Source: Thermoplasmata archaeon | GTDB lineage: Archaea > Thermoplasmatota > Thermoplasmata > Lutacidiplasmatales > UBA184 | Reading direction: 5' to 3' | Assembly (NCBI GenBank): GCA_035297105.1 | Contig: DATGZO010000006.1 | Location: 5,415-69,414, forward strand | Length of the DNA stretch: 64,000 nt | Shown: piece after piece, positions 15,934 through 33,900 of the stretch | Numbering within the stretch: the first letter of the stretch is position 1 | How the letters are laid out: each line of letters opens with the position of its first letter | Made by a program: the position numbers and the translations under genes | The notes under the pieces: model-generated | What the model was told of the DNA's origin: nothing | The model's database searches: none | Seen by the model: only the letters and a program-made list of their open reading frames with translations

Positions 15934-17340
15934 CTAGGCCCCCGCGACGGTCAGCGGCTTCACCAGGATCGTCGGGCCGCTGAAATTCTCGGCCAGGGCG
16001 GCCGTCGAGCCCAGAAGGGCCAGGTTCGTGAGCATCGTCGGGGTTCCCGCCGGCCCCAGAACGACCCCCCCGACGGTTCCGCCTCGGACCGGCTCGGCGA
16101 GCTTCCCGTGCCGGATCCGGTAGCCGATCCGGATCTCCCCCCCGAAGGCACCGGACAGCACGTCCGGGCTCGCCCAGCCGAGCTGTTGGACCCAGATCCC
16201 GTCCCCGGCCGCCTCCACGACCTCGGCGTCCGACCCACCCTCGCCGGGTTCCAGCACGATCGTGGTGGGCCCGATGCCCGGTTCGTGCGCGAACCGCAAC
16301 CAGTCCCGGCGGCCGAACGAGAGGCCACGCTGCCCGTTTCCGGTCGGCGGCACGCCGAACGCCCCCGAGTGGCGGACATCGTAGAGCAGGTCGGCCGCCG
16401 CCCCCGCCCGAACCAGCGGCCGCGTACCGGTCGGGTTCCCCTCGTCGTCCCATGGTGTGGAGTTCGGACCCCACGGGAATCGCCCATCGTCCTGGATCGT
16501 GACCGCGGGGGCCGCGATCGTGCTGCCGGGGGTCGGGGCGATGTCGCGAAGGCGGGAAGCTCCGGAGAAACGGAACCCGACGACCCCGGGGAGGATGGTG
16601 GACGTGGCGACCGCCGGCAGGACGACCGGGAGCTCCCCGCTGGGCGGGGCTTTCGCCCGACGCGCGTCGCGGGCGTACTGGGCCCACATCGGCACTTGAT
16701 CCCCCGCGCGGGCGGGGTCGGCCTTCCGCTCGACCCCATTGACCCAGTACTCTCCCGGGGGCGCGCCCTCGGGGCCCCCGAAGGCCTTGACGGCGACCTC
16801 GAGGTCCATCGAGGTCTCCGCGTACTGGGACCGGAAACCGGCCGAGTTCGCGATCGAGATCTCGGAGAGGGTCGCCCGCACGGACCCGAAGCTGGGGAGG
16901 GCGTCCGTGAGGGGCTCGAACGGGGCGAGCAGCGCGGCCACGTACTCCTCCAGGCGCGGGAGGGGCGAGTCCCACAGTTTCGAATCGAGGATCTCAAGTC
17001 CAGGAGACGTAGCCGCGGAGCTCGGGAGCTCGATCCGCTTCGTGGGAAAGGTCGAGTGACCCGCGACGGCCTCGGCCCCCGCGAGGGCCAGAATGATCCC
17101 CGCCTCAGATGAATCGGTGGAGGCCTGGAACCCGGTACCGGTCTTGTCTTCGTGCAGGCGGAAGACCCGGAGGCCATACCCCTCGACCAGGAGCGGACCG
17201 CGGAGGAACTCGACCACCGCTCCGTTGAAGTGTACCTCGTAGCGCCTCGAGCGCTGGCCGAAGACCTCCCACGGGGCGGGCGTATGCAGCCGGTCCGCCA
17301 CCCGGTAGGCGACCGGGTTGGGGGAGAGCGGCGGCGTCAT
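15934..17340 (-). CDS. pmbA: TldD/PmbA-family metalloprotease, PmbA/TldE-like subunit
   Basis: TldD/PmbA fold with the G-rich C-terminal region (...GGTVGGVVLGPAGTPTMLTNLALLGS...). Met at 17340 overlaps the tldD stop (ATGA). Confidence 0.78.
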   Translation of the reverse strand: MTPPLSPNPVAYRVADRLHTPAPWEVFGQRSRRYEVHFNGAVVEFLRGPLLVEGYGLRVFRLHEDKTGTGFQASTDSSEAGIILALAGAEAVAGHSTFPTKRIELPSSAATSPGLEILDSKLWDSPLPRLEEYVAALLAPFEPLTDALPSFGSVRATLSEISIANSAGFRSQYAETSMDLEVAVKAFGGPEGAPPGEYWVNGVERKADPARAGDQVPMWAQYARDARRAKAPPSGELPVVLPAVATSTILPGVVGFRFSGASRLRDIAPTPGSTIAAPAVTIQDDGRFPWGPNSTPWDDEGNPTGTRPLVRAGAAADLLYDVRHSGAFGVPPTGNGQRGLSFGRRDWLRFAHEPGIGPTTIVLEPGEGGSDAEVVEAAGDGIWVQQLGWASPDVLSGAFGGEIRIGYRIRHGKLAEPVRGGTVGGVVLGPAGTPTMLTNLALLGSTAALAENFSGPTILVKPLTVAGA

Positions 17341-18731
17341 GCCGGCCCCACGACGGCGGTGGAGAGCAGGTAGGCCCCTCCGGTGCCCGCGGGAAGGGTA
17401 TCCGAATGCCCCTTTCCGCATGTGCCCGGATCGATCATGAAGTCCTTGGCGCTGCTGACCCCGCGGATGGCCTCAAGGAAGTCGAGAACGCGACCCGAGA
17501 GGGCCATGGAGCTGACGAGTCCCTTTTGCTCCCCGTTCTGGATCACGTGGCCCTTCTTCACCTTCAGCTGCATCTGCCCGCCCTGCGGGTCCTCGATGCC
17601 CGAGGTAGCACGTTCGAGGAGGATCCCGTTCTTGGCCTCCTTGACCAGCTCCTCGTACTTCCAGTCCCCCGGCTCGACGTACGTGTTCGTCATCCGAACG
17701 AACGGTCGGCTGACGAAGTCCGCGCGGCGCGTGTTGCCGGTGGGCCGGGCGTTTAGGACCGTCGCGGTTTCCCGGTCGTGCAGAGCACCGACGAACCGTC
17801 CCCGGTCGACCAGGACCGTCCGCTGGCCCGGGTTGCCCTCGTCGTCGAAGTAGATCGTCCCCCATCCGCCGGGGTAGGCGCCGTTGTCCACGATCGTGAG
17901 GAAGTCGGGACCGACGGTCTGTCCCAAGAGCGGTTTCAAGTACGAACGGTCGCGGACGAACTGGTCGGCCTCGGTCCCGTGGCCGAACGACTCGTGCGCA
18001 AAGATCCCGGCAACCCCGGGGTCGAGCAGGACGGTCATCGTGCCCGTCGGAGGCGCGCCGGCGGTGAGGAGCTCTCGGGCCGACTCCGCGACCTCCTTGA
18101 CCTTGGCTTCGGTCAGGTAGTCGAGCTGCTCCCGGCCGCCGAGTCCACCCTCCCCCAGAAAATCGAACTCGACCTTGCCGGACTCGATCGCGAGGGGGAC
18201 CACGCTCGACCGTGCCCGGGTGACCCGCTGGTAGCACCGCGCCCCCGCCGTGTTGAGGTAGAGGCGCTCATCGTCCTGCCACCCCATGTTCACGATCGTA
18301 TCCTTGATGGTGGGGACCTCGCTCGCCCACCCGAGGATGTCCCGCGCGAGATGGATCATCCCCTCCATGCCCAGGTCGGAGAGGGGATGAGGCGGATCTG
18401 TCATCCGCTCCGCCACGGTGGTCGAGGAGGGCCCCGGCGGGGGGGTTCGGGCCGGACTCGCCTTCACCGCCCGTTCCACCGACTCCGCCGCCGCGTCGAG
18501 ACCGGCGGCCGTCAGATCGGTGGTGGCTGCCTCGACCCACCTCGTCCCGGCCCACGCGCGCACCGCGGCGCCCCGGAAGAACGGTTGCGAGGACGGGCTG
18601 GTCGACCGGCGGTCGAGCCGCAGGCTCTGGCCCCGCGCACTCTCGGCCATGATGTCCGCGAACGACGCCGCGCGCTCGAGTCGGTGGAGGATGCGGGCGA
18701 GGTCGTTCTCGGAGGCGCGGAGGTCCGGCAT
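17337..18731 (-). CDS. tldD: TldD-family metalloprotease
   Basis: ...HESFGHGTEADQF... (HExxxH-like TldD motif) and the conserved C-terminus ...GTCGKGHSDTLPAGTGGAYLL.... Confidence 0.85.
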   Translation of the reverse strand: MPDLRASENDLARILHRLERAASFADIMAESARGQSLRLDRRSTSPSSQPFFRGAAVRAWAGTRWVEAATTDLTAAGLDAAAESVERAVKASPARTPPPGPSSTTVAERMTDPPHPLSDLGMEGMIHLARDILGWASEVPTIKDTIVNMGWQDDERLYLNTAGARCYQRVTRARSSVVPLAIESGKVEFDFLGEGGLGGREQLDYLTEAKVKEVAESARELLTAGAPPTGTMTVLLDPGVAGIFAHESFGHGTEADQFVRDRSYLKPLLGQTVGPDFLTIVDNGAYPGGWGTIYFDDEGNPGQRTVLVDRGRFVGALHDRETATVLNARPTGNTRRADFVSRPFVRMTNTYVEPGDWKYEELVKEAKNGILLERATSGIEDPQGGQMQLKVKKGHVIQNGEQKGLVSSMALSGRVLDFLEAIRGVSSAKDFMIDPGTCGKGHSDTLPAGTGGAYLLSTAVVGPA

Positions 18732-20413: not shown

Positions 20414-21640
20414 GTGTACAGACCACCATCGGGGCTAAAGCCCGAACGCCATATCCCGCACGTGCGTCGTTCTACCCGGATCAACCTCAGCTCGGACGAA
20501 CTGGCTCGACTCCGAGGCTGGGTCGATGACCCCGCGACCCCGGCCCGGGTCCGCGACCGGTCCCGCATCCTGCTCTGGTCGGCCGCCGGTCATTCCGACG
20601 CGGAAATCTCGACCGGACTCGGCAAGGACGTGGCCACGGTCGCGCTGTGGCGACGACGCTTCCTGCTGCATGGACTCTCGGGAGCGCTCCGCGATGCGCC
20701 CCGCCCCGGTCGGAGGCCCAAGCACCGGGACTCCCTCAACGACCGCATCCTCGACGCCACGTTCAACGAAACGCCCCCTCGCGGAGCGCGCTGGAGCACG
20801 CGCGCGCTCGCCCAACGGTTCGGGGTGAGCCACATGGTCGTCCAACGCCTGTGGCAGTCTCAGGGGGTCGGCGCCAAGACCTCGTACCGGATCCCGGATC
20901 GGTTGGCGGGCGCCCAGCTCCCGTTTGTAGACTTGCTGGGGGTTATACTTCAGCCACCAACGCGGGTCGTGATCATCGGCGTGGAGCTCACCGGGGAGTC
21001 GCGAATCGCCCACGTCGAACCGTTGTTCCAGACCTTGCGGACGGAGCTCTCCGGAGGGCATCTTTTCCACTCAGTCCGAGCCGACCCCGAGGACCTGATC
21101 GCGTTGCTCGACGGGTTCCATGAGATTCCGGCCGGTCCGCCGGGACGGCGTTTGCAGCTCGCCAATCTCCTCATCCTCCTCCGAGAAATTGATGAGCGGA
21201 CGAGCGCCACGACCAGGGTCCATCTGCTGGCCGAAGGTCGGGGCGCGGCGAAGGACCCCCGGCTCGCGGCCTGGATGCGCCTCCATCCGCGCTTTGTCCT
21301 GCACAACCTGCCGGTGGGTTCGGAATGGGAACGCGAGGTCGGCCGCTTCGTCCATCAGTGGCAGTCCGTGACACTTCGCACCGGCAGTTTTCAGGGCGTC
21401 TCCGCATTCACCCGGGCCGCAGCGAGGTTCGCGGCCCGTCCTCCCGTCCACCGCGACGGCATGGCATGGAGCATCGGACCGATGCTCGATCGCGCTACGC
21501 AGCTTCATGCGAGCGGATCGGCTGTCCCGCCCCTGCCCAATTCCACGCGGTCCGTGGACGGCACATCGGCTCAACCACCGCCCACGTCAGAGAATTCACG
21601 ACTTAGTGAGAAATTTTCGTTACGAACCGTGGGTCCTTAA
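20414..21640 (+). CDS. IS630-family transposase-like protein with substituted catalytic triad
   Basis: N-terminal paired HTH typical of IS630/Tc1 (...ISTGLGKDVATVALWRRRF...WSTRALAQRFGVSHMVVQRLWQ...). The DDE_3-like region aligns as VIIGVELTG (for VLSVDEK), HLLAEGRG (for ILDNLSAH) and SEWEREVGRF (for SWLNPVERFF). No terminal inverted repeats or TA duplication were found. Confidence 0.55.
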   Translation: MYRPPSGLKPERHIPHVRRSTRINLSSDELARLRGWVDDPATPARVRDRSRILLWSAAGHSDAEISTGLGKDVATVALWRRRFLLHGLSGALRDAPRPGRRPKHRDSLNDRILDATFNETPPRGARWSTRALAQRFGVSHMVVQRLWQSQGVGAKTSYRIPDRLAGAQLPFVDLLGVILQPPTRVVIIGVELTGESRIAHVEPLFQTLRTELSGGHLFHSVRADPEDLIALLDGFHEIPAGPPGRRLQLANLLILLREIDERTSATTRVHLLAEGRGAAKDPRLAAWMRLHPRFVLHNLPVGSEWEREVGRFVHQWQSVTLRTGSFQGVSAFTRAAARFAARPPVHRDGMAWSIGPMLDRATQLHASGSAVPPLPNSTRSVDGTSAQPPPTSENSRLSEKFSLRTVGP

Positions 21641-21709
21641 TAAGCAGAACCCGTCCCCGCATTGCCCCTAGGGGCAGAACCGGGAATCTAAGGAGTGAAG
21701 GAAGGAAGA

Positions 21710-22237
21710 ATGGTAGCAAGAGCATTGTGGACATCTATTTTGGTGGTCGGGCTGTTGGCCGTGGGCGGAATCGGCTTTGCCGCGTTCACCGCGACGTATC
21801 AGGTGAACGTGCAGGGCACCGCCGGCAACCTCTCGATCGCGATCGCGAATTACAACACTCAAGTGAGCAGCTCGTACGTCGGCTGCGTCGGGAGCATTTC
21901 GGGCACCTACCTGAACATCTCGGCGGGACCGTTCGCGCCAGGCGACTGGTGCCAGGTTTACGGGAACATCACGAACACGGGCAACGTGCCCGCGACCGTC
22001 CTCGCCAACTGGCCGCACAGCGGCATCGACGCGTGCTTCGTTTGGAATGTGACGTACCCGACGCACAACCCCAACGTGCCGCCCTCGGGCCACGGCCTCC
22101 TACCGGGCGCGATGGAAAAGTTCCAGTTCGCACTCGGCTTGAACGCGACGGCCGGCAACTCGTGTGAGAACCACGTGGCGACGGTGACGATGGACTTCAC
22201 CGCGACCTCGATGGCTCCGAGCGCGCCGTTCCCGTAG
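21710..22237 (+). CDS. secreted TasA/camelysin-like (SipW-cognate signal) protein, copy 1
   Basis: N-terminus MVARALWTSILVVGLLAVGGIGFAAFTATYQVNVQGTAGNLSIAI resembles the SipW-cognate/TasA-type signal region (GG.T.AAFTD....N.F.AG.L). It is followed by a small beta-rich domain with N-glyc sequons. An SD-like AAGGAG lies upstream. Confidence 0.5.
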   Translation: MVARALWTSILVVGLLAVGGIGFAAFTATYQVNVQGTAGNLSIAIANYNTQVSSSYVGCVGSISGTYLNISAGPFAPGDWCQVYGNITNTGNVPATVLANWPHSGIDACFVWNVTYPTHNPNVPPSGHGLLPGAMEKFQFALGLNATAGNSCENHVATVTMDFTATSMAPSAPFP

Positions 22238-22273
22238 GAAAGAGGCGGTAGCCGGAATCAAGCGGAGAAGAAA

Positions 22274-22789
22274 GTGGTAGCAAAAGCACTGTGGACTTCG
22301 ATCCTGGTCGTCGGACTCCTGGCCGTGGGTGGACTGGGCTTTGCGGCGTTCACCGCAACGTACCAGGTGAACCTCCAGGGCACGGCGGGCAACCTGAGCG
22401 TCGCCTTCGGGGACTCCAACATGATCACGAGCCAGTCGTACGTCGGCTGCTGGGTCTCTGGTGAGGGCAGCAGCTGGCTCAACGTCAGCGCGGGGCCCTT
22501 CGCCCCGGGCGACTGGTGTGAAGTGTTCGGCAATCTCACGAACACGGGGAACGTCCCCGCGACCGTGACGACGTCCGCGACCCTGACCGATCCGGCGGGT
22601 TGTTTCGAGTGGGCTCTCTTGGCCCCGGAGTCGAGCTCTGTCACGGTGGCCCCGGGCGGCACCGTCGCCTTCCAAGGCGCCCTCGAGCTCAACCCCGCCG
22701 ATGGAAACAGCTGCCAGAACACGGTCGGAACTCTGTCGGTCACCTTCACGGCGACCGCCGGCAACGGCAACGAGAACGGGCCCTTCTGA
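22274..22789 (+). CDS. secreted TasA/camelysin-like protein, copy 2 (paralog of 21710..22237)
   Basis: GTG start. VVAKALWTSILVVGLLAVGGLGFAAFTATYQVNLQGTAGNLSVAF... is ~60 percent identical to copy 1 over the N-terminal half. Confidence 0.5.
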   Translation: MVAKALWTSILVVGLLAVGGLGFAAFTATYQVNLQGTAGNLSVAFGDSNMITSQSYVGCWVSGEGSSWLNVSAGPFAPGDWCEVFGNLTNTGNVPATVTTSATLTDPAGCFEWALLAPESSSVTVAPGGTVAFQGALELNPADGNSCQNTVGTLSVTFTATAGNGNENGPF

Positions 22790-22816
22790 GCGTAGGCTCC
22801 GAGTCTCCAGCACGTC

Positions 22817-22841
22817 CAACCCCTTCCTTCCTTTCTTATCC
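22817..22841 (+). terminator. pyrimidine-rich 3' motif CAACCCCTTCCTTCCTTTCTTATCC (shared with two other secreted-protein genes)
   Basis: Near-identical copies follow the stops of 27402..30815 and 30998..35605. Archaeal terminators are pyrimidine/T-rich tracts. Confidence 0.4.
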
Positions 22842-22929
22842 TACGACGGGTAGCGGGACACCTTGACCGGAGCGGCCGTCTCCTCTCGAAGGCCCCGATC
22901 GGTCCTGGCTCCGGGCTCGGACTAGACCG

Positions 22930-24357
22930 ATGATCGACTCCACCGAGGTCACGATCCTCCTCGGGACGATCGTGTTCCTCGCCCTCGTGCCAGCCGCCTT
23001 CCGACACTCCTGGTGGCCCTGGTCGGCCGCCGCCATCACGGTCTTGCTGGCGATGTTATACGACGCGCTCAGCTCCCTCGCAGTGGGCTCGTGGTTCTAC
23101 CTCGGCTATGCGCTCTTCGCCACCGCACCCCTCCTGGTCTTCTTGGTGTACGTTCGGTTCGCCGAGCGCGCGCGCCCGTTCGCCTTCGGACTCACGCTCC
23201 CCCAGGGGCAGACCCGGCGGATGGTCGCGCTCGCCCTCGTCCTCGCCGGCGTGTACTTCGTGCTCACGCTTGAACCGGGCTTTCTCCAGGGATTCACGGT
23301 CCCGGGCCTTCTCGACCCGGAAACGTTCGCGGTCTTCTTCCTCACGACCCCGCTGATCGCACTGGGGCAGGAGGCGGTCTTCCGCGGGTACTTCCTCACG
23401 AAAGTGGCCGGTCGTCATCCGTTCCGGCACGCCCTGTTCGCTTCCTCGGCCCTCTTCGCCGTGGTCTCGTTGAACCCCTTCCTCTTCGCGGAGTTCTCGT
23501 TCATCAGCCAGGTCCCCACGCTCTTCCTGACGGTCGGTACCGGGTTCGTCCTCGGCATCTTCCTCGGCCTCTTCTTTTACAAGGCCCATTGGAGCCTCCT
23601 CGGCCCCTGGGTCTTCCGTTCGGTGGTACTCGGGATCTCGCTCCTCTTCCCGGTCGCGGTCCGGGGCTTGGGGTGGGAGACCGTCTTCGTGCTCGACCTG
23701 ATCGCGCTCACCGCCGTGATCGTGGTCGTGTTCGTCGGCCTGCGGGAGCCCCGGTTCGAGGCCCGCCACTACCTGGACGAACCGCTCCAGCCACGTCGAA
23801 GGACGCTGCTCGCGCGCGCCCGCGCGCGACGGCGGGCGATCCCTCTGGTCGTCGTGCTCGGGGTTGCGGTACTGCTCGTGGCGTTCGCCGGCCCGATCGG
23901 GTCCGTTACCTCCCGGGCGCCGGTTCGTGTTCTCGCCATCGAGACCGGCAGCATGGCGCCGACATTCGATCGGGGGACGCTCGTTCTCATCGAAACGGTG
24001 GGGGGGCCGTCCGACCTCGAGGTAGGGGACATCGTGGCGTACAACGCGCCGTATCTCTCCCCGAACGGACCCGTGGTCCACCGCATCGTCGCCATCCACT
24101 TGAACGGCTCCCAAGAAGTGTTCACGTTCAAGGGAGACGCCAACCCGAGCCCCGACCCACGCCCGGTCGTGTTCAGTCAAGTGGTGGGAAAGGTTGTGAC
24201 CTACGTACCTTACCTGGGCTACCTGGTGCTGAGCCCGGAGCTCTCCGTGTCGATCCTCTTGATGCTGGTCCTCTTCGGATTCTACCGGGGTTCGCCGGAC
24301 GCGACCCCGGTTCGCCGACGGCGACCCGTGTTCCCACTTCGGAGGGAGCGCGCATGA
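22930..24357 (+). CDS. fusion protein: N-terminal CPBP-family intramembrane protease domain plus C-terminal archaeal/ER-type signal peptidase I (SipW-like)
   Basis: The N-terminal ~250 aa are polytopic with LGQEAVFRGYFL (the EExxxR motif of CAAX/CPBP proteases) and HALFASSALFA. C-terminal part: ...IETGSMAPTFDRGTLVLIE...GDIVAYNAP...VVHRIVAI...FKGDANPSPD...VVGKVVTYVPYLG. This has the S26B catalytic Ser (GSM) and His (HRIV) in the archaeal/SipW arrangement. Confidence 0.65.
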   Translation: MIDSTEVTILLGTIVFLALVPAAFRHSWWPWSAAAITVLLAMLYDALSSLAVGSWFYLGYALFATAPLLVFLVYVRFAERARPFAFGLTLPQGQTRRMVALALVLAGVYFVLTLEPGFLQGFTVPGLLDPETFAVFFLTTPLIALGQEAVFRGYFLTKVAGRHPFRHALFASSALFAVVSLNPFLFAEFSFISQVPTLFLTVGTGFVLGIFLGLFFYKAHWSLLGPWVFRSVVLGISLLFPVAVRGLGWETVFVLDLIALTAVIVVVFVGLREPRFEARHYLDEPLQPRRRTLLARARARRRAIPLVVVLGVAVLLVAFAGPIGSVTSRAPVRVLAIETGSMAPTFDRGTLVLIETVGGPSDLEVGDIVAYNAPYLSPNGPVVHRIVAIHLNGSQEVFTFKGDANPSPDPRPVVFSQVVGKVVTYVPYLGYLVLSPELSVSILLMLVLFGFYRGSPDATPVRRRRPVFPLRRERA

Positions 24358-25397
24358 GGTTCGCGGCCCTGCTTCTGGTCGCCCTTTCCCTCCTGCTCGT
24401 GGTCGCGCTGTACGCCGAGGTGAGCATCGATGCGAGCCCCACTCAGACGACGACGTCGGGCACCCTTCTTTCGTTCTCGACCACCACCAACTTCGATTAC
24501 CGGGCGACGCTTCGCCCCAACACCCTCTTCGGCAATGGAACGCTCGGCCCGGGCGGGGGTGCCCTCTACGAGAGTCTCGTCCTTCGGCTCGACCTGACGT
24601 ACTCGTACTGGCTCAACCTGAGCGCGCCGGCGAACGTGACGTGGGGAGCCGGGTTCTCCGTTACCATCGCGGTGCCGGGCCAGTGGACGTACACCCTCAA
24701 CTACAGCAAGCAGGTTCTCCCTCCCGAGGTCTACACCACCTCCGCCCCGTTCCACGACGACACGGAAGTTGCGTTGCCGCCCTTGCTGAGCCTTCTCTCC
24801 ACGTTCCAGAACGAGACGCGGTCCAACCCCTCGAGCTACGACCTCAACTTCACGGCGTACGAGGTGGCGGCCATTCAGTACGACAACCTCCCCGCTCACT
24901 CGGTGACGTACCCGGTCCTGACCTTCACGCTCGCCTCGGGGGAGCTCGTCCCGGGTCCCTTGTTCGCGAGCTCGAACGGCTCGATCCCGACGACCCTCCC
25001 AGTGACCGACTCTTCCCGCTCCACCAGCCTTGACCTCGCCATAGCGGCCTGCGTGATCCTCGCCGCCGGCGTGGGCATCGCGGCGGCCTTCACGCTACGT
25101 CCCCGGAACAAGAAGGTCGACGTCTCGGCCGAGGTCCGCTCGATGACCGCCGCCTACCAGGACGCCATCGCGACCACGTGGACCGCGCCGCGGAAGGAGA
25201 ACGTCGTAGTCATCCGCGACTGGGAGGACCTGATCCACGTGGCGGACATGTTGGGCAAACCGATCCTCCGGTACGTGCTGCGCAAGTACGACCCGCCCCG
25301 GCACTTCTTCTACGTACTCGACGGACAGGTCCAGTACATCTACCTCGTTCCGCGAGAGGGACGGCGGGCCGAGGAAGAGATCGCGGACCTCCCCTAA
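24354..25397 (+). CDS. bitopic membrane protein: signal peptide, N-glycosylated ectodomain, TM, ~100-aa cytoplasmic domain; translationally coupled to the signal-peptidase fusion gene
   Basis: MRFAALLLVALSLLLVVALYA then many N-x-S/T sites. TM segment LDLAIAACVILAAGVGIAAAFTL. The ATG overlaps the upstream stop (ATGA). Confidence 0.55.
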   Translation: MRFAALLLVALSLLLVVALYAEVSIDASPTQTTTSGTLLSFSTTTNFDYRATLRPNTLFGNGTLGPGGGALYESLVLRLDLTYSYWLNLSAPANVTWGAGFSVTIAVPGQWTYTLNYSKQVLPPEVYTTSAPFHDDTEVALPPLLSLLSTFQNETRSNPSSYDLNFTAYEVAAIQYDNLPAHSVTYPVLTFTLASGELVPGPLFASSNGSIPTTLPVTDSSRSTSLDLAIAACVILAAGVGIAAAFTLRPRNKKVDVSAEVRSMTAAYQDAIATTWTAPRKENVVVIRDWEDLIHVADMLGKPILRYVLRKYDPPRHFFYVLDGQVQYIYLVPREGRRAEEEIADLP

Positions 25398-25503: not shown

Positions 25504-26745
25504 ATGGTTGCCAGGTCAATCGTTACACCCCCTCTACCAGTTTCGCGCCAAACCCTCCGAATCCGCCACACGGTTCTGAGTTCACCGTCGCATCCTTTTG
25601 AATTCTGGGCGTCATCGGGACGCTCACACCGCGACTGGCTGACGATAGTGCTGGCCGTTGGGATTGTCTTGTTTGTGAGTGTGTCAACCGCCGGAAATTG
25701 GGGCCACCAACTCCAACCTAAGAACGTTTGGGCTTCTCAGATGGGTCAAACGAACGCGGCGGTCAGTCCGAGTCTTTGCGGACCCCCGTGTCCGTATAGT
25801 TCGCTTCAACTCGTCTTGCCGCCCGCTCCGGTCACTGGCTATCTTGCGAACATCAAATTCAATGGTACCATCTACACTCAGGACACTATTCTGAACGTGT
25901 TGCCCGGTACCTATCCGGTTTCTTTCGTGAGCCTGTATTCAAGCAATCCTGGAGCTGCCTTCCTTAACTGGACCGTAGTGAGTGGTTCCGTCGGTAGCAC
26001 TACGTCCTCTTCCACCACCTTTACCATCCTTAGCGGCGGGCTTTCCCCGATCCTCACCCTGAACGTGTTTCTCGTGACCTCTGTCTGGGCGGGGTATGCC
26101 GTGGCGGGGCACGCTGGTACAGTAACGCAGGTCGCCGGTTCGTGGGTTCAGCCTACGATGGGATGCAACCTAACCAAGAGCAGCAAGTCGGGGGTCCAGT
26201 TCTCGACATGGGTGGGGTTGGATGGTCTGTGGTCGACGAACCCGTACATTGAACAGATTGGGACGGAAGCGGTGTGTTCTCCGGGCGGTGCAACTTCCTA
26301 TGGGGCCTGGTACGAATTCGGTAATGGAGTTTACCCAGGTTCGGTCGCCATTACAACCATCACGCCCCATCCAGCCGACGTATTCTCGGGAACGGTCGTA
26401 TATAATTCCGCGACCTCCAATTTCACGATGAGCCTAACGGACCTCACCACGCTGGCGAGCTTCTCGATCACCCAGCCCTGGTCCTCCGCTACCGAATCAT
26501 CCGCGGAATGTATTCTCGAGCAAACGCAACCTTACTTGGCGAGTGAGTTCTGGTTCGTGGGCCAAGCCGGTTTCGGAAGTATGCACACCGGGGTCACCAA
26601 CACTTGCGATGCATCTGTCCGCTCCGCTCTTTCTCCATTCAGCTCTTTCAACTACCTTACCGTCGAGTTCTATTCGGGTACGTCGCATCAGCAACTTTAC
26701 CCCACCCAGCTCGTAGGTGGAAGTTTCAATGTCAACCACGGCTGA
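25504..26745 (+). CDS. peptidase family G1 (eqolisin / scytalidoglutamic peptidase-like) acid endopeptidase, membrane-anchored precursor
   Basis: G1 signature blocks: FSTWVGLDG, catalytic Gln in IEQIG, YGAWYEF, and catalytic Glu in SAECILEQ (compare fsaWvGiDG / lvQtG / aWyEw / sAEwIvE). TM anchor DWLTIVLAVGIVLFVSV. The gene and its flanks are lower in G+C than surrounding DNA. Confidence 0.8.
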   Translation: MVARSIVTPPLPVSRQTLRIRHTVLSSPSHPFEFWASSGRSHRDWLTIVLAVGIVLFVSVSTAGNWGHQLQPKNVWASQMGQTNAAVSPSLCGPPCPYSSLQLVLPPAPVTGYLANIKFNGTIYTQDTILNVLPGTYPVSFVSLYSSNPGAAFLNWTVVSGSVGSTTSSSTTFTILSGGLSPILTLNVFLVTSVWAGYAVAGHAGTVTQVAGSWVQPTMGCNLTKSSKSGVQFSTWVGLDGLWSTNPYIEQIGTEAVCSPGGATSYGAWYEFGNGVYPGSVAITTITPHPADVFSGTVVYNSATSNFTMSLTDLTTLASFSITQPWSSATESSAECILEQTQPYLASEFWFVGQAGFGSMHTGVTNTCDASVRSALSPFSSFNYLTVEFYSGTSHQQLYPTQLVGGSFNVNHG

Positions 26746-27365
26746 AGGATTCCTATCGAATACGTGAGTCGGTGGATTTCGAATTCCCACATCGACTGAC
26801 GCGTGCCGAGGCCATACCCCCCACATCTATCGGGCTACCAGCCTTGAGACATCAAGGCACAGCGTGATCCTTACCGCTCGAGAGGCCAACCCGGGATTGT
26901 GCCGCCCCGACCTCGCCCTGATTCCGCGGCGCTCGCGACTGTTGAGAGTGCGGAGGGGAGTGTCCCCTCCGCCCCCTTGTGGAGGGGATCGGTCCCAGGT
27001 TTCGGATCGACGGATTGGAATCGATTGACGCAAAGTAGGCACCTCGTAACTTCGTTGGCCGGCTATCACCCCACTTTGGTGTGGTCTTCTGGCGTGGCGT
27101 TTTGCTTGGGGACGCCGGCCCTCCCCCTCGAAGGAACGGGGAAAGACCTTCACGACTTTCAGGTTCAGGCCCGCGAAAAAGCCCAGACCGCGCCGGTCCG
27201 GCGAGCGATCCAGGCGGCAGGTCGGTTCGACCGGATCTCACCGAAGCGCAGACGATGAGCCCCTGACGCATCCACGTCCACGGAGGCGAGGTGGGAAATC
27301 GGGCGGCTCTAGAAGGTCTTGCGAATTGAGGGAAACTTGTTTGCAGAATTTGTGGTGCGGACGGT

Positions 27366-27378
27366 TGTTAAATAGGGT
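27366..27378 (+). promoter_or_regulatory. TATA-like box (GTTGTTAAATAGG) ~25 nt upstream of the ATG at 27402; implies a leaderless or very short-leader mRNA
   Basis: An AT-rich octamer in otherwise GC-rich DNA at the canonical archaeal -26 spacing relative to the start codon. Confidence 0.4.
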
Positions 27379-27401
27379 GCGAGATTCGCGCGTGCCGGAA
27401 T

Positions 27402-30400
27402 ATGGCCGACCGTCGAGCAGTTCTGCTGGGCACCGCCTTGGTGACTTTGATCATGGTCCTGTCTGCGATGGGACTCCTCCTCGTGGTGGCTCCGCCCGCG
27501 GGCGCCCACTCGACGGCCGTGTCCGTCGTCACAACGGGTGCGCCCGCGCGGATGGCGGCGGGCGGGACTTCGAGCCCTCCGACATCGGCGGGCCCGGCCA
27601 GCCGACTCAATGTGCCGGCGACCTCGACGACCCTGAGCCCTCTCGCTGAGAAGGTGCTCACCTCGGCCCATGCCCAAGGCATTCCGAACCGGGACGTCTT
27701 CGTTCCCCGTGCCGGAGCCACTCCCGCCCAGGAGGCTCGTGCCGGGGCCCAGGGCCACGTGACCCCGTTGTACGGCCAGTACTCCCCGGCCCCAATTGGG
27801 CTCGCCGATTACGGTCTCTCCGCGAACACGAACGGCAACGGGAGCATCGTCCCCTCGATCCTCAACACCTCGGCTCTCCTTGCGACGTTCGCCCCGAACG
27901 CCACCGGCGTTCTCGCGGCCTACCCCTTCGACAGCTCGCCAGACGCCTACGGCGTACAATTGAACGCCGTGAGCACGGCGATCAACCTGTTCGGAAACTC
28001 CAGCTACTCGTTCTGGACGCAGAACGTCGCCGAGTTCTACCCGACCTCGGGGACGCTCTACCTCGTCACCAATGTCTGGAACTTCTCCGGAGCATCCATC
28101 TCGGGCAACGCATTCTACACCACGGGGACGCTGGGGACCGACAACTCGGCGTCCTACGGGTCGGCCGGATTCTACTACTCCGAGTACATCGTCACCGGTC
28201 TCTCGTATCCGTTCACCCTGAATTTGTACATGAACAGCACGCTGAACTCGACTCGGAACATGGTCACGTTCTCCGTCGGGATCAACGACCCAAGCAACCC
28301 CGGCGTGTCAGGCGGTTACCCCTACGACTACGTCGTGTTCAACTCGTCCGCGGCGGTCCAGTCGAACTACGAGGCGAACGGCTTCACGTACAACGCCCTT
28401 GGCCTGACCAACGACTTCGAGGTCATCCTCGGAGGGCCGGGCGGCGGCGCCACCTCGGACCTGTTCGATGCGGACGCCAACCTCTCCCTCCAGTACTGGA
28501 ACGCCAGCGCGGGCTCCTACGAAGAAGTCCCGACGGCGTTCTCGTATGGCGGCGAGACGGGGGAGACGGTCACCGGCGCCAACGTGGCCTGGGCGATCAA
28601 CTCCACGGGTTCTCCCTACGGGGTCGTCACGACAGGGCCTGGCATCCTGGAAGGACTGTGGAACGCCACGGGCGCCCAGGGCGCCTACCCGGTCACCCTC
28701 GACATCACTCCATCGAACGCGTTCTACTTCGTAGCGCCGAACTGGACGAGCAACTTCACGTATGAAGGGGACCCGTACTGGGCGCCGCAGGAGTTGAACG
28801 GCGGGGTCTTCTACCTCGCTCCCGGGAACTACAACATCAGCATCCTACTGAGCGACTACGACCCGGTGTACACGAATTTCATCGTGACGTCGGCCGGTGT
28901 GACCATCACCATGACCCTGACGGCCGACGCGTCGATGGGCATCTACGCCCCCTTATACTTCTGGAACAACAATCAGTTCGCCGCGTTGTCTAGCAGTGGA
29001 TCCGGCACTCCCTCGAGCCCGTGGCAGATCGACAACACTCAGACGCTGGCGTTCCCCTCGGTGTTCGGTCTGTTCAATGACTACACGTTCCCCGTGTTCA
29101 CGGGCGTGTTCATCTGGGGCACGACCGACTCCGTGGTCCTGAACGACATGCCCGCGCTGACGACTGGGTCGCCCTACATCAACTTCCCGGCCACGAACGA
29201 CCTCGGGTACATCTTCTACTACGCGTCGAACATCGCGCTCGTCAACTCCACCCAGATCAGCGGATGGTTCACGACGAACGTGGCCTCCGGGATCGGGTAC
29301 GGGTTCATTGGGAACTATTACGCGACGTTCAGCGTCCTCGAGTGGGAGTCGACCGGAATGCTGTTCTCGGGCGACACCTTCCAGGTCCAGGCGGGCGGCA
29401 TCTACGCCGCCGACGGGACCTCGAACACGTTCTGGGGCAACACGTTCGAGGATGTCGCGATCCCGACGTTCGCGGCGTGCGCGACGTTCCACATCTGCGC
29501 CGAGAACCTGAGCCTCGGCCTCCAGCTCGCCGAGGGCGGCGACACGGTCTACAACAACGCGTTCAACCTGCCGGACCCCGCGTCGGAACCGCCGTTCGAC
29601 CTGTACACGGGCTCTGAAGTGCTCTGGACCAACACCTGGAACATCACCCCGACCCCCGCTGCGACCGTCAACTACGCGGCCGGCTGGCCGGACTTTCCCC
29701 TGACTGGGACGATCATCGGCAACGCGACCCAGGGCGGCAACTACTGGTCGAATTACGGTAACAGCGCCAACCCCACCGGCATGCTCCCGTACAACAACAG
29801 CCAGCCGACGGGCGCACCCTACGGGCAGATCTACAATGGGGGCGACTACTACCCGCTGGTCTACACCTACTACGCGGTCACCTTCACCGAGTCGGGCCTC
29901 ACGGCCGGTACCATGTGGACGGTCACGCTGAACAGCGTGGCCCAACACTCGTCGGGAACGACCATCGTGTTCAACGAGATCAACGGCGTGTGGCCCTTCA
30001 CCGTCTCGCTCGTGAGCGGCTACCACGCGCCCGTCCCCGCCACCGGGTCGATCACGGTGAACGGTGCGGCGACCGGACAGACGGTCACCTTCACGGCGAT
30101 CGCCCCGCCCCCGACGTATACCGCGACGTTCACGGAGACCGGGCTGGCGGCCTCGACCAATTGGTCGGTGACGTTCAACTCGGTCGTGTACTATTCGACG
30201 ACCGGTACCATTAGCATCTCGGGACTGGCGAACAATACGTACCCGTGGACCCTCAGGGCCCAGACCGGCTTCACGGCGAACCAGACCACCGGCAACGTGG
30301 TGATCGCGGGCGCGGACGTGGCGACCTTCATCGGGTTCACGGCCGTGACCCCGGCGACCTACACGGTGACGTTCACCGAGACGGGCCTCCCGTCGGGAGC

Positions 30401-30815
30401 CAGCTGGACCGTGACGCTCGCGGGCACTCCGAGTACCCAGACGACGGCGTCCATCACGTTCTCGGGTCTCGTGAACAACACCTATGCCTACACCCTCGGA
30501 GCCGTGACGGGCTACACGTCCTCGGTCACCTCGAGCTCGGTGATCGTGGCCGGTGCCTCCAAGACCGTGGGCGTGACGTTCACCGCGTCGAGCAGCCCCC
30601 CGCCGTCCGGCTCGGGTAGCAGCAGCGGCCTGTCCACGCTGGACTGGATCATCATCGGCGTCGTGATCGCGGTCATCATCATCGCCCTGATCATCGCGCT
30701 CGCCATGCGCGGCCGGTCGGGCGGCGGTGGGTCGAACACCGGAAGTTCCCCGAAGGAAGAGTCGGGGGACAGCTCGAACATGGACGACGGCTCGTCCGGC
30801 GGGGGCTCTGCGTAG
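27402..30815 (+). CDS. large N-glycosylated surface protein: signal peptide, thermopsin (peptidase A5)-like N-domain, four tandem ~85-aa Ig-like repeats, Ser/Pro linker, C-terminal TM anchor
   Basis: MADRRAVLLGTALVTLIMVLSAMGLLLVVAPPAGA signal. The N-domain (...PIGLADYGL...FWTQNVAEFYP...) resembles archaeal thermopsin-family proteases, but this assignment is from memory of the family. Repeats are of the type YTVTFTETGLPSGASWTVTLAGTPS...ITFSGLVNNTYAYTLGAVTGYTS. The C-terminus is ...SSGLSTLDWIIIGVVIAVIIIALIIALAMRGRSGGGG.... Confidence 0.6.
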   Translation: MADRRAVLLGTALVTLIMVLSAMGLLLVVAPPAGAHSTAVSVVTTGAPARMAAGGTSSPPTSAGPASRLNVPATSTTLSPLAEKVLTSAHAQGIPNRDVFVPRAGATPAQEARAGAQGHVTPLYGQYSPAPIGLADYGLSANTNGNGSIVPSILNTSALLATFAPNATGVLAAYPFDSSPDAYGVQLNAVSTAINLFGNSSYSFWTQNVAEFYPTSGTLYLVTNVWNFSGASISGNAFYTTGTLGTDNSASYGSAGFYYSEYIVTGLSYPFTLNLYMNSTLNSTRNMVTFSVGINDPSNPGVSGGYPYDYVVFNSSAAVQSNYEANGFTYNALGLTNDFEVILGGPGGGATSDLFDADANLSLQYWNASAGSYEEVPTAFSYGGETGETVTGANVAWAINSTGSPYGVVTTGPGILEGLWNATGAQGAYPVTLDITPSNAFYFVAPNWTSNFTYEGDPYWAPQELNGGVFYLAPGNYNISILLSDYDPVYTNFIVTSAGVTITMTLTADASMGIYAPLYFWNNNQFAALSSSGSGTPSSPWQIDNTQTLAFPSVFGLFNDYTFPVFTGVFIWGTTDSVVLNDMPALTTGSPYINFPATNDLGYIFYYASNIALVNSTQISGWFTTNVASGIGYGFIGNYYATFSVLEWESTGMLFSGDTFQVQAGGIYAADGTSNTFWGNTFEDVAIPTFAACATFHICAENLSLGLQLAEGGDTVYNNAFNLPDPASEPPFDLYTGSEVLWTNTWNITPTPAATVNYAAGWPDFPLTGTIIGNATQGGNYWSNYGNSANPTGMLPYNNSQPTGAPYGQIYNGGDYYPLVYTYYAVTFTESGLTAGTMWTVTLNSVAQHSSGTTIVFNEINGVWPFTVSLVSGYHAPVPATGSITVNGAATGQTVTFTAIAPPPTYTATFTETGLAASTNWSVTFNSVVYYSTTGTISISGLANNTYPWTLRAQTGFTANQTTGNVVIAGADVATFIGFTAVTPATYTVTFTETGLPSGASWTVTLAGTPSTQTTASITFSGLVNNTYAYTLGAVTGYTSSVTSSSVIVAGASKTVGVTFTASSSPPPSGSGSSSGLSTLDWIIIGVVIAVIIIALIIALAMRGRSGGGGSNTGSSPKEESGDSSNMDDGSSGGGSA

Positions 30816-30836
30816 GGGTTCCGGCGAACCCAGGGC

Positions 30837-30862
30837 CAACCCTTTCCTTCCTTTCTCCTTCG
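30837..30862 (+). terminator. pyrimidine-rich 3' motif CCAACCCTTTCCTTCCTTTCTCCTTC
   Basis: It lies 22 nt after the stop of 27402..30815 and is shared with 22817..22841 and 35627..35650. Confidence 0.4.
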
Positions 30863-30965
30863 GTTCATCCGACCGGGCGACGGCCCTCTCAGGCCACCGG
30901 GCCACGGGCCGGCACCGGGGAAGAGCGGCGCGCGGATTCTGCAGGAATCGCCGAGGTCACGAGAC

Positions 30966-30973
30966 TTAAGTAG
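30966..30973 (+). promoter_or_regulatory. TATA-like box (CTTAAGTA) ~25 nt upstream of the ATG at 30998
   Basis: Same spacing as for the paralogous upstream gene. Confidence 0.35.
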
Positions 30974-30997
30974 CGAGCCCCGTTCGCAACGGTGAAC

Positions 30998-33900
30998 ATG
31001 GCCGACCGTCGAGCCGTACTGCTGGGCGCCGCTCTCGTAACCGTCCTCATGGTCCTCTCTTCGATGGGGCTCCTTTCGGGTCTTGCCGGAGCCACGGGCT
31101 CTCACCCGGCTACGGCGGCCACCGTTAGCGCCACCACGACCGTCTCGAGTTCGGTCGCCCCCGCACGGATCCCGGGCGGCTCGACCGGGTTCGGAGGCGG
31201 ACACTTCCTCCCGACCCCGACCGCCGCGAACGCCCCCACAACGACCCGGGCCGCCCCGTCCGTGGGTTCGGTCTCCCCGGTCGTCGCCAAAGTGGAGAGT
31301 CAGATCGCCAACCACCAGATCAATCCGTCGAGCGTCTTCCTCCCGAGCGCCTTCACCCACACCGGCGCCGCCCCAGCGTCGGGGATCTCTCCCACGTACC
31401 CCGGCACGCCGGCGCCAATGGGCCTCGCCGACCTCGGGGTCGGCGCGGGGGGCAATTACGAATACAACACGACCAGTTTCGCCTCATTCCTGACCCTCAA
31501 CAACTTCACCGACTACAACCCCGGTTATGCCGGGTGGGACGCCCCGCCGAACTACATGACGTTCCAGCTCAACACGGTCACGGTCAACGTCTCCTACCCC
31601 GGCGGTACGCACGGGGTCTTCTGGATCCAGAACGTCGCGCACTTCAACGGGACCGACCTCCAGTTCGAGAACAACATCTGGAACATGACCGCCGCCGGGG
31701 TCGGGCTCAATGCGGGAACTCTCGCGCCCGGATACCAGGGAACCCTCGTTGCCGGCGAATTCTACTACACGTACGGACCGCTCTTCCAGGTCCATTACCC
31801 TTTTTCGCTCAACCTGTACAACAACATCTCGACCGCCGGCGGCGTGCCAAGCGTCTACTTCAACTACACGATCACCAACGCGACCCTCGGCGGGTTCACC
31901 CAGAATTGGTCGGCGTACTACGACCACGTCACGTTCAACGGCAACCTGGTCTCGGGCGCTCCCCCCGAGTTCGAAGTGAACGGGTACAACTACAATCCCG
32001 CCGGCCTCCTCTGGGACGCCGAGCTCATCTTCGGCGGGAACGGGGGCGGCGCCAACGCGGTCATCACTCAGCTGAACGGTTCGGCCAACCTCGAGTCTTG
32101 GAACAACGTCACGAAGCAGTACACGAACGTCTCGTCCGCGTACGACTACGGTGAGGACACCGGCGAGACGGCCGTGGGCGTCGCGAGCTACTACCTCGGA
32201 ACCACCGAATACCTGAGCCAAGGTCCCTCGATCCTGTACGGGCTCTGGAACACGGCCAACTCCTCCTTCGGCCCGGCGGCCCTACCCGGCTGGATCTCCG
32301 TCACCTACGGCACGACCGTGAACTACGCGTTCAGCTTCTTCGAAACCGAGGACAATTACTACACCGCGGGCGACAACTGGAGCTACGCTCCCACGGACCT
32401 CGCCGGTATCGGGGTGACCCGACTCCCCCCTGTCTGGTCGAACAACGAGTACGACTTCGCCGCTTGGGCGGACGGATACGACCCGGTGAGCCCGCTCATC
32501 GTCGGGGGCAACACGACGGTAGAAGTCCTTCTCAACAGCGACCCGAGTGTGTTTAACGCCCCGGTCTACCTCAGCTCCGACGCGCAGGCGAGCAGCTTCG
32601 GATTCGCGGGGATCTACGGGGTCTCCTGGACGAGCATCTCCGGCGTCAGCAATCTTTCCATCAATGACAGTAAGGCGGCTATCGCTCCGGCGTTCCTCCA
32701 ACTGAACGATTTCCGGTTCGCCACGTTCTTCCTGGCCGCCGTGGATAACCTCACCACGTCGGTCTACCTCAACGGATTCCTCCAGGACCCCACAACTTTC
32801 AACTACAGCTTCTACGCGCACACCCTCCATCTCCCCGGTTGGACCCAGGGTTACTACTTCAACTACGGCTCGGGAATCTACACCGTCACCAACACGACCA
32901 TCACCGGTAACGCGGATGTTGAGTTCTGGAGCACGCTGTACAGCAGTGCCTCCAACATCGTGACGTCCGGCGACTCGTTCGGAGTCGACGTCCTCCAGGG
33001 GAACTACACGGAGTTCGACAACATCACGAGCGAGACCGGCGCCAACGCGATCGGCGTGATGAACTCCTACGAGGTCTTCGGGTACGATCTTTCGTCCAAC
33101 GGGACGGACGTGAACGCGGTGCCGAGCTGGGCGGCGTACCTGTTCGCCAGCCAGGACGTCTACCTGTTCACGACCACTACGACCAACGGCGCGCTCGGCA
33201 TTTACAGCGACCAAATCGAAAGCTTCTACTACGTAGGACTGACCGCCACCAACGCCTACGCGGCCCTGGAACTTCTGGACACCGGCTTCGGCGAGGTCAC
33301 CGACCTCCTCGTCAATCACTCCTACGGCGTCTACGCCGACCTCTACGGGTACGTCGACTTCTACAACTGGACGTTCACGAACGGCTCCTCGGGGGGCAAC
33401 CTGTTGGACGGCGTCGGCGGGGAATACGTGTACGGCCTCAACGTCGTGGACTCGAGTGGGCTATACCTGGAAGGGATCACGGGCCTGCTCGCCCACTTCA
33501 TCAACGCCTCGGGCCCCTCGAGCTACGGGATCGAAGCGTCAACGACCAACTACTCCTCCTTCTACAATGTGACCGCGGTCAACAACGCCGAAGGGGTCGT
33601 CGTCGAAGGGGGGCAGAACGTTTCGGCCGCGAACATTACCTCCCGCCTCGGTTCCTTCGGATTCGGGATCCTCGGCGCCCAGAATGTCACGGTCGCGAAC
33701 GTGACCGTCTCCGACGGCGCGGCGGGTGCGCTCGTGGAGAGCAGCGAGAACGTCACGGTCGCCAACGTCACCGTCTCGGGCGTGGGCGTCGGGGTCGGCG
33801 TGATCGCGGACGAGTACGTCCTGGTCGACAACGTCAACTCGACGGCGGCCACCCCCGGGCCGGAGTACTTCTCGACCACCCAGATCCGCAGCGCCCCCAA

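Follow-up and report, generated by a model that had tools for sequence, protein, structure and literature searches.

A probable abpX-type fibre module in an uncultured Thermoplasmata archaeon, with a signal peptidase fused to a degenerate Rce1/CPBP-fold membrane domain

The described fibre loci closest to the one considered here are the abpX loci, which combine AbpX-like minor subunits, a type I signal peptidase (SPase I) with ten transmembrane (TM) segments and a DUF5305 protein (Sleutel et al., bioRxiv 10.64898/2026.01.04.697558). AbpX subunits assemble into polymers by donor-strand complementation (bioRxiv 10.64898/2026.01.04.697558; PDB 9sj2, 9rhp), and AbpX-like proteins occur in Thermoproteota, Bacillota and Chloroflexota (bioRxiv 10.64898/2026.01.04.697558). 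In the tafi system of Haloarcula hispanica, deletion of tafD blocks both TafA processing and fimbriae, and TafG is a DUF5305 protein (PMC11821415; PMC12337348). Here we analyse a 64,000-nucleotide stretch of a Thermoplasmata archaeon (GenBank assembly GCA_035297105.1, contig DATGZO010000006.1, positions 5,415 to 69,414; hereafter the window), in which the listing of open reading frames (ORFs) places four co-oriented plus-strand genes, A-B-C-D, at 21710-25397 (Table 1). We consider it likely that these genes form a self-contained module for making a TasA-superfamily extracellular fibre or matrix, with abpX-type locus architecture: as at abpX loci, there are paralogous subunits, a dedicated many-TM SPase I and a DUF5305 gene, although the window module contains no tip protein and belongs to a lineage, Thermoplasmata, that is absent from the preprint's main text. 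An earlier reading of this DNA, made by a model from the letters and their translations (the sequence-only reading), had proposed a TasA-type fibre module with two secreted paralogues, a CPBP::SipW protease fusion and a coupled membrane partner; the four co-oriented genes lie where it placed them, with the ATG of D overlapping the stop codon of C.

Table 1. Features of the module and its immediate surroundings, in window coordinates
Feature	Position	Strand	Description
Candidate regulator	20414..21640	+	HTH_23/HTH_32 protein, 408 aa, directly upstream of A; Pfam families from the identical locus L001
TTAATAA	21637..21643	+	Speculatively an archaeal TATA box, ~67 nt ahead of the start codon of A; sequence inspection
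Gene A	21710..22237	+	175 aa, AbpX-like TasA-superfamily subunit paralogue; family HMM E = 7.8e-52
Predicted N-terminal donor strand of mature A	21782..21823	+	AFTATYQVNVQGTA; aligned to AbpX mature donor strand Q1-I12
Gene B	22274..22789	+	171 aa, GTG start, AbpX-like TasA-superfamily subunit paralogue
Predicted N-terminal donor strand of mature B	22346..22387	+	AFTATYQVNLQGTA; aligned to AbpX donor strand; disordered in monomer model
Pyrimidine tract	22820..22841	+	CCCCTTCCTTCCTTTCTTATCC; in the 140-nt B-C spacer; sequence inspection
Gene C	22930..24357	+	475 aa, CPBP-fold domain fused to signal peptidase I
C, N-terminal domain (residues 1-285)	22930..23784	+	8-9 TM Rce1/CPBP-fold without canonical catalytic histidines
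C, C-terminal domain (residues ~300-454)	23827..24291	+	ER/archaeal-type signal peptidase I, TM anchor on either side
Gene D	24354..25397	+	347 aa, DUF5305, candidate signal-peptidase accessory protein

The products of A and B are paralogues with 59% identity (E = 1e-62), and A-type and B-type orthologue groups are both retained in related metagenome-assembled genomes (MAGs). Direct Pfam, NCBIfam and PDB sequence searches with A or B alone returned no relevant match; their relationships are detectable only with family profiles and not with single sequences. A word-indexed search recovered 34 homologue clusters, each either unnamed or derived from Thermoplasmata MAGs, and an exhaustive profile search 1,185 representatives at 50% identity, mostly of 160-200 aa and sharing the same layout. 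Against the PDB, the close-family profile matched AbpX of Pyrodictium abyssi (9sj2_C, also 9rhp; E = 2.5e-6), and a broad profile of 82 members matched the same chain, 9sj2_C, at E = 2.2e-12 and TasA (5of1/8aur) weakly, at E ~5e-3, in the P-G-D...N-x-G region; AbpA was not matched significantly by either profile. Among the 82 relatives, Pfam PF12389 (Peptidase_M73/TasA) is matched by 14, the SipW-cognate signal model TIGR04088 by five and the TasA model by five. A and B would accordingly be placed in the TasA superfamily, with AbpX as their closest characterised relative, an assignment resting on sequence profiles, donor-strand alignment and gene context. The two TasA-type secreted paralogues of the sequence-only reading are therefore upheld, whereas its comparison with TasA and AbpA loci holds for the superfamily and not for the nearest relative, which is AbpX rather than either of these.

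The subunits resemble AbpX in size and in that a signal peptide, predicted to be cleaved off, precedes an amphipathic donor strand with an aromatic residue at position 2. The tapA-sipW-tasA operon of Bacillus subtilis likewise encodes a secreted beta-sandwich subunit with a signal of the SipW class (GG-x-x-x-A, then AF after the cut) and a dedicated ER-type Ser/His peptidase. The window subunits are, however, shorter when mature (about 150 aa against about 230 aa for TasA), no TapA-like gene accompanies them, and their peptidase is CPBP-fused and DUF5305-paired. The ABP operon of Pyrobaculum calidifontis (AbpA/AbpB; PDB 7ueg) differs in lacking a dedicated signal peptidase and containing the TapA-like AbpB, which is absent from the window module (PMC9245690).

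Residues 1-24 constitute the signal peptide in both A and B, with cleavage of A predicted between G-F-A and A-F. The alignment to AbpX opens at AbpX mature residue 1 (QWSETLSLSATI...), which lies opposite A-F-T-A-T-Y-Q-V-N-L-Q-G of the subunits, and in the 82-member profile alignment A1-F2 are placed on AbpX Q1-W2; from this starting point the cut is predicted to follow G-F-A, positions -3 and -1 both being small. The spacing of the site is also the same as in TasA, whose sequence there is ...TWA followed by AFND. Mature position 2 is aromatic (F/W/Y) in 72/76 relatives and is F2 in both A and B; positions 2, 6, 8, 12 and 14 are hydrophobic or small across the family, and positions 3, 5, 7, 9, 11 and 13 are polar, the odd positions being Thr/Ser/Asn. 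Position 4 is S/A/T in 70/76 and D in 2/76 (A4 in A and B). In the AbpX donor strand W2, L6, L8, A10 and I12 fill the groove of the neighbouring subunit, and E4 binds calcium (bioRxiv 10.64898/2026.01.04.697558).

An AlphaFold2 (AF2) model of B, built from a 30-sequence alignment, is a nine-strand beta-sandwich with a mean predicted local distance difference test score (pLDDT) of 78. Its first strand begins at precursor residue 43, and residues 20-35 are unstructured with pLDDT below 50, indicating that the predicted donor strand lies outside the monomer fold; the donor strand is likewise unstructured in AbpX monomers (bioRxiv 10.64898/2026.01.04.697558). Conservation is concentrated in the same region: of eight alignment columns with almost no variation in the broad family, four fall in the signal peptide or cleavage region. 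Over their first 42 residues A and B are identical at 38 positions, with 17 synonymous codon differences, indicating purifying selection on the peptide; recent gene conversion was considered as a source of these near-identical N-termini and rejected, as 17 of the 42 codons differ synonymously. As read from the alignments, this pattern indicates the conservation expected if the N-terminus serves both for recognition by a dedicated peptidase and as an interchangeable donor strand.

The same N-terminus could in principle be read as that of a type IV pilin-like protein, with the hydrophobic helix retained and processing by a prepilin peptidase, since a short basic N-terminus precedes the helix and R-G-L-M-like sequences occur in some relatives. 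We regard this as extremely improbable: the MVAK/R-ALW of A and B departs from the FlaFind pattern for class III cleavage, there are no PilB/PilC-type genes in the locus, where a dedicated SPase I is conserved instead, and the experimentally observed mature N-terminus of AbpX aligns past the hydrophobic helix.

The subunits lack the features with which AbpX binds calcium. Asp and Glu together make up 3.3% of A and 6.8% of B (family median about 5%), compared with about 15% in AbpX, whose clade has a pI of about 4 (bioRxiv 10.64898/2026.01.04.697558), and with 12.4% in that part of the AbpX sequence used for our comparison. The isoelectric points of the subunits are 5.2 (A) and 4.05 (B), and owe their low values solely to the near-absence of Lys and Arg. 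According to the profile alignment alone, AbpX D18 lies opposite S18 of the sequon N16-L17-S18 in A and B, and the acidic D46-E52 loop of AbpX (D46, D48, E52) is replaced by a shorter, non-acidic loop; donor position 4 is Ala in the window subunits and not acidic. Since this acidic calcium-site signature was looked for and is missing, A and B are not AbpX sensu stricto. They have instead four Cys each, with five N-x-S/T sequons in A and three in B; four Cys are present in 28/29 close and 51/76 distant relatives, as compared with two in AbpX, and one Cys of the family aligns with an AbpX Cys. With the calcium-binding acidic residues absent and four conserved Cys and sequons in their place, assembly is probably not calcium-triggered. 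This class of subunit would seem, from its residues, unable to use the AbpX calcium trigger, which raises the question of whether its assembly is controlled by disulfides, glycans or pH.

The absence of this signature is also one of several points that weigh against fibre formation and would suit a different reading, in which A and B are non-polymerising secreted or surface beta-sandwich proteins (envelope- or adhesin-like glycoproteins) that need a dedicated signal peptidase but form no fibre. Fold searches ranked generic Ig-like domains first. The P-G-D...N-x-G beta-sandwich core of A and B also occurs as 5-12 tandem copies in giant proteins of 600-4500 aa (P0175, P0203, P0219, P0242, P0257, P0263), which suggests a common domain origin for fibre subunits and surface proteins of the repeat type and implies that the fold itself is not fibre-specific. 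No tip or anchor subunit, nor any further substrate with the same signal and donor motif, was found in the window or within about 6 kb in 40 Thermoplasmata loci, and neither A nor B matches PF12389 or TIGR04088 at E ≤ 1; the SipW-cognate/TasA signal class assigned to them by the sequence-only reading is thus supported by the five matching relatives and not by A and B themselves. Against the non-polymerising reading, the N-terminal extension falls residue for residue on the experimentally defined AbpX donor strand, its aromatic clamp and amphipathic alternation are kept in about 76 divergent relatives, it lies outside the folded core of the monomer model, and the composition of the locus is that of published fibre loci. 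We therefore consider it rather improbable that A and B do not polymerise, and retain the fibre-forming interpretation.

The C-terminal domain of C matches Peptidase_S26 and scores 88.1 bits against NCBIfam TIGR02228 (archaeal signal peptidase I; cut-off 51.85), as against 60.3 bits with the Bacillus SipW equivalog NF046067, for which the cut-off is 190; judged by these scores, C is the same type of peptidase as SipW and not a SipW orthologue. The motifs GSMAPT (residues 340-345), HRIV (384-387) and KGDANP (401-406) are all present, and all 46 homologues share S341, H384, D403 and D409. With the C family profile, human SEC11A (7p2p) is recovered at E = 3.7e-23, its GSMEP, VHRV and KGDNN motifs lying opposite those of C, and a Foldseek search likewise matched the peptidase domain to SEC11C/A. 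The archaeal/ER-type signal peptidase I of the sequence-only reading, together with the Ser/His dyad on which it depended, is therefore confirmed. The eukaryotic signal peptidase complex (SEC11A/C with SPCS1-3; 7p2p, 7p2q) has the same Ser/His/Asp motifs, and a catalytic subunit accompanied by membrane accessory modules; it differs in that the CPBP-fold domain and DUF5305 have no detected SPCS homology, and in that the window system is dedicated to few substrates.

The N-terminal domain of C is a degenerate member of the Rce1/CPBP fold. It matches the Pfam Rce1-like family (PF02517) marginally, over residues 132-230 (24.3 bits; cut-off 22.4), and in an AF2 model of C (mean pLDDT 82) it superposes on Methanococcus Rce1 4cad (Foldseek TMt 0.60, prob 1.0) and, less closely, on APH-1, a CPBP-fold protein of gamma-secretase that is not catalytic, the shared fold extending over residues ~1-285. 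Catalysis by CPBP proteins depends on the motifs EExxxR, FxxxH and HxxxN/D. When these were mapped onto C, by Pfam coordinates and inspection rather than by structural superposition, the first was found as QExxxR (Q147 in 35/46 homologues, E148 in 35/46, R152 in 34/46), the His position of FxxxH as S/A/T across the C family, and the HxxxN positions as R230 and L234. Several homologues lack both the Glu and the Arg of motif 1, and no His in residues 1-285 is conserved in 80% or more of the 46 homologues. An active intramembrane protease, degrading cleaved signal peptides or processing A and B a second time, would be compatible with the Pfam match above its gathering threshold, with the Rce1 fold and with a fairly conserved motif-1-like Q-E-x-x-F-R-G-Y, but hardly with the missing His and Asn of motifs 2 and 3 or with Gln in place of the first Glu; we consider such an activity improbable. 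More probably the domain is non-catalytic and has a scaffold or substrate-docking role. The CPBP::SipW fusion proposed earlier is accordingly retained as regards fold, whereas the word 'protease' probably overstates the CPBP part, which differs from Rce1/CPBP enzymes in its missing histidines, its degenerate EExxxR and its fusion to a signal peptidase.

CPBP/Abi proteins are often bacteriocin immunity factors, and the locus might on that account be a bacteriocin or toxin module, in which A and B would be antimicrobial, the CPBP/Abi-like domain would confer immunity and the peptidase would remove a leader. One relative indeed has a weak lactococcin-972 match (E = 0.014), but it is the only one among 82 members, the AbpX match is much stronger and full-length, and the pairing of DUF5305 with an SPase is typical of fibre loci, so that we see very little chance of this explanation being correct.

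Full-length C homologues of 430-478 aa form about 90 clusters, all from Thermoplasmata. In Desulfurococcales, other Thermoproteota, Moorellaceae and other Bacillota, peptidases of 380-430 aa adjoin A/B-like and DUF5305-like genes, and these peptidases evidently correspond to the SPases described as 'ten-TM' in the AbpX preprint. Neither a hidden Markov model (HMM) of the Thermoplasmata N-domain nor the Pfam Rce1-like model matched these long peptidases of other lineages; hhalign nevertheless linked their N-terminal extensions to the Thermoplasmata N-domain with 82.6% probability (E = 1e-5), including the E...R motif. On this evidence a divergent CPBP-fold module may be common to the 'ten-TM' peptidases that abpX loci encode in Thermoproteota and Firmicutes. 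The preprint assigns no CPBP fold to the additional TM helices of its peptidases, and its text contains no mention of CPBP or CAAX (bioRxiv 10.64898/2026.01.04.697558); no paper naming both CPBP and SipW was found in the literature searched. Five loci of gut and host-associated bacteria (L045, L046, L048, L051, L087; Bacteroidaceae-labelled, Clostridia, Bacilli, Saccharibacteria and Lachnospiraceae MAGs) also have a DUF5305-like gene beside a peptidase of about 378 aa that bears a multi-TM N-terminal extension of about 250 aa. Only some of these loci have a detectable A/B-like gene, so that the peptidase/DUF5305 pair may there serve other substrates.

The partner protein D belongs to DUF5305 (PF17231; 30.2 bits against a gathering threshold of 29) and can be aligned from end to end with an unambiguous DUF5305 protein of locus L006 (E = 2e-20). 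It consists of a hydrophobic segment (residues 3-21), an ectodomain of about 205 aa with seven N-x-S/T sequons, a TM segment (228-246) and a cytoplasmic domain of about 100 aa; a TM-ectodomain-TM-cytoplasmic layout has been described for DUF5305 (bioRxiv 10.64898/2026.01.04.697558). The sequence-only reading had taken D for a bitopic N-glycosylated protein coupled to the peptidase: its sequons and overlapping ATG agree with this, but with two hydrophobic segments it would be bitopic only if the first is cleaved. The overlap between peptidase and D-type genes recurs in loci L005-L007, and SPase::DUF5305 fusions exist (P0125, P0131).

Synteny points in the same direction. Of 40 Thermoplasmata loci, 38 combine the fused peptidase with a DUF5305-like gene and one to six genes of the A/B type, the two exceptions being truncated contigs, so that the arrangement proposed from this single stretch is not a chance one and proves to be conserved among related genomes. 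Gene order varies, the subunits lying upstream of the peptidase in the window and downstream of it in L006 and L007. The same three parts (subunits, long SPase and DUF5305) are found in six loci of other lineages (L050, L062, L069, L070, L074, L083). In some loci, e.g. L015 (JASHYB010000120.1) and L024, four to six A/B-like paralogues accompany one peptidase/DUF5305 pair, which hints at heteropolymeric or switchable sets of subunits.

The tafi locus (Tat-fimbriae) and the related Thermococcus/Archaeoglobus clusters also have two or three subunits of 150-200 aa, a dedicated S26 peptidase, a DUF5305 protein and often a regulator (PMC11821415; PMC12337348). The signals of the tafi subunits are, however, of the Tat type and those of the window subunits of the Sec type; TafD has four TM segments and a different extra domain, where the window peptidase has its CPBP-fold N-domain; and the subunits of Thermococcales are DUF1102 proteins.

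A mechanism consistent with these findings can be put forward. A and B would be exported by the Sec pathway, and the peptidase domain of C (Ser341/His384/Asp403) would remove their unusually conserved signal peptide by a cut behind G-F-A, C and the translationally coupled DUF5305 protein D working together as a membrane complex. An 18-residue N-terminal extension, AFTATYQVNxQGTAGNLS, would thereby be freed, and its amphipathic first 14 or so residues would enter the beta-sandwich of the following subunit as a donor strand, giving chaperone-free homo- or heteropolymers of A and B on the cell surface. The resulting surface fibre, for which a biofilm or matrix role may be envisaged, would be glycosylated, disulfide-stabilised and calcium-independent, and the CPBP-fold domain of C would serve as a scaffold or substrate-docking module and not as a second protease. 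A more elaborate version, in which C and D constitute a multi-module archaeal signal-peptidase complex whose dead Rce1-fold domain docks the signal peptide, hands the donor strand to the fibre and anchors the assembly, supplying a platform otherwise missing from loci with neither tip subunit nor chaperone, is offered as a tentative and rather unlikely proposal; such docking would be akin to the way in which APH-1 scaffolds gamma-secretase.

The arrangement of the genes suggests that they may be co-transcribed. The spacers measure 36 nt (A-B) and 140 nt (B-C), the C and D genes overlap by 4 nt, with the ATG of D and the TGA of C forming ATGA, and purine-rich, Shine-Dalgarno-like stretches precede A, B and D. 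An alternative in-frame GTG start of A at 21695 is less likely to be used, because B opens with a homologous M-V-A-K. The G+C content is 62-71% across the window and 66% in the module region, where TTAATAA is among the few AT-rich patches; a scan for promoters and terminators found no sigma-70 promoter, although, being restricted to sigma-70, it is uninformative for an archaeon, and a scan for tRNA genes found none. Speculatively, the pyrimidine tract between B and C could be a partial terminator or attenuator separating the subunit genes from the peptidase genes, and a leaky terminator at this point may set a high ratio of subunit to peptidase expression.

HTH_23/HTH_32 (helix-turn-helix) domains, such as those of the 408-aa protein encoded directly upstream of A, are common in transposases. 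Homologues of this protein are, however, encoded co-oriented and directly upstream of the module in L008-L012, L014 and L016, and the position and orientation of the gene are kept across species whose peptidases are 45-85% identical to C, making a dedicated regulator likelier than a mobile element. The protein is probably an accessory part of the module in this clade, in which it may have a regulatory role.

Exact copies of C were found on metagenome contigs of 29-146 kb, and the contig is present in peat and soil samples (JGI 3300027905, 3300009522, 3300010379); the Pfam families of the neighbours described here, like those of the upstream protein, come from the identical locus L001. Directly downstream of D lies a run of plus-strand genes (25504-35605) for secreted or membrane-anchored proteins of acid-protease types: a Peptidase_A4 (G1/eqolisin-like) protein with an N-terminal TM segment (25504-26745) and two giant, N-x-S/T-rich thermopsin-domain surface proteins (27402-30815 and 30992-35605; 1137 and about 1537 aa), the translation of the first of which also has a C-terminal TM segment. 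Thermopsin-like ORFs lie near the module in at least 12 of the 40 Thermoplasmata loci and may either be linked to it or merely be abundant paralogues. Upstream on the minus strand, an overlapping pair of TldD/PmbA proteases (15934-17340 and 17337-18731) and an 830-aa AAA_16 + TPR protein (STAND/MalT-like; 12392-14884) are apparently unrelated to the module.

The sequence-only reading had considered the gene order, the two subunit paralogues and the fusion peptidase to set this locus apart; paralogous subunits, a many-TM peptidase and a coupled partner have now been published as typical of abpX and tafi loci, so that the novelty is smaller than was then assumed, and the window module is not a new kind of system, the kind itself having been described only in 2025-2026. 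What is new is the Thermoplasmata lineage, a Cys-rich class of subunit free of the calcium site, and the recognition of the membrane domain of the peptidase as a degenerate Rce1/CPBP fold. Donor-strand fibres of the TasA superfamily are emerging as a common biofilm scaffold of bacteria and archaea, of which few have been studied, and the present findings extend the abpX-type system to uncultured Thermoplasmata of soil and peat, with about 1,200 subunit clusters at 50% identity in metagenomes. By giving an identity to the unexplained extra TM helices of the dedicated peptidase, they also open the notion of a substrate-dedicated signal peptidase complex in prokaryotes to direct test.

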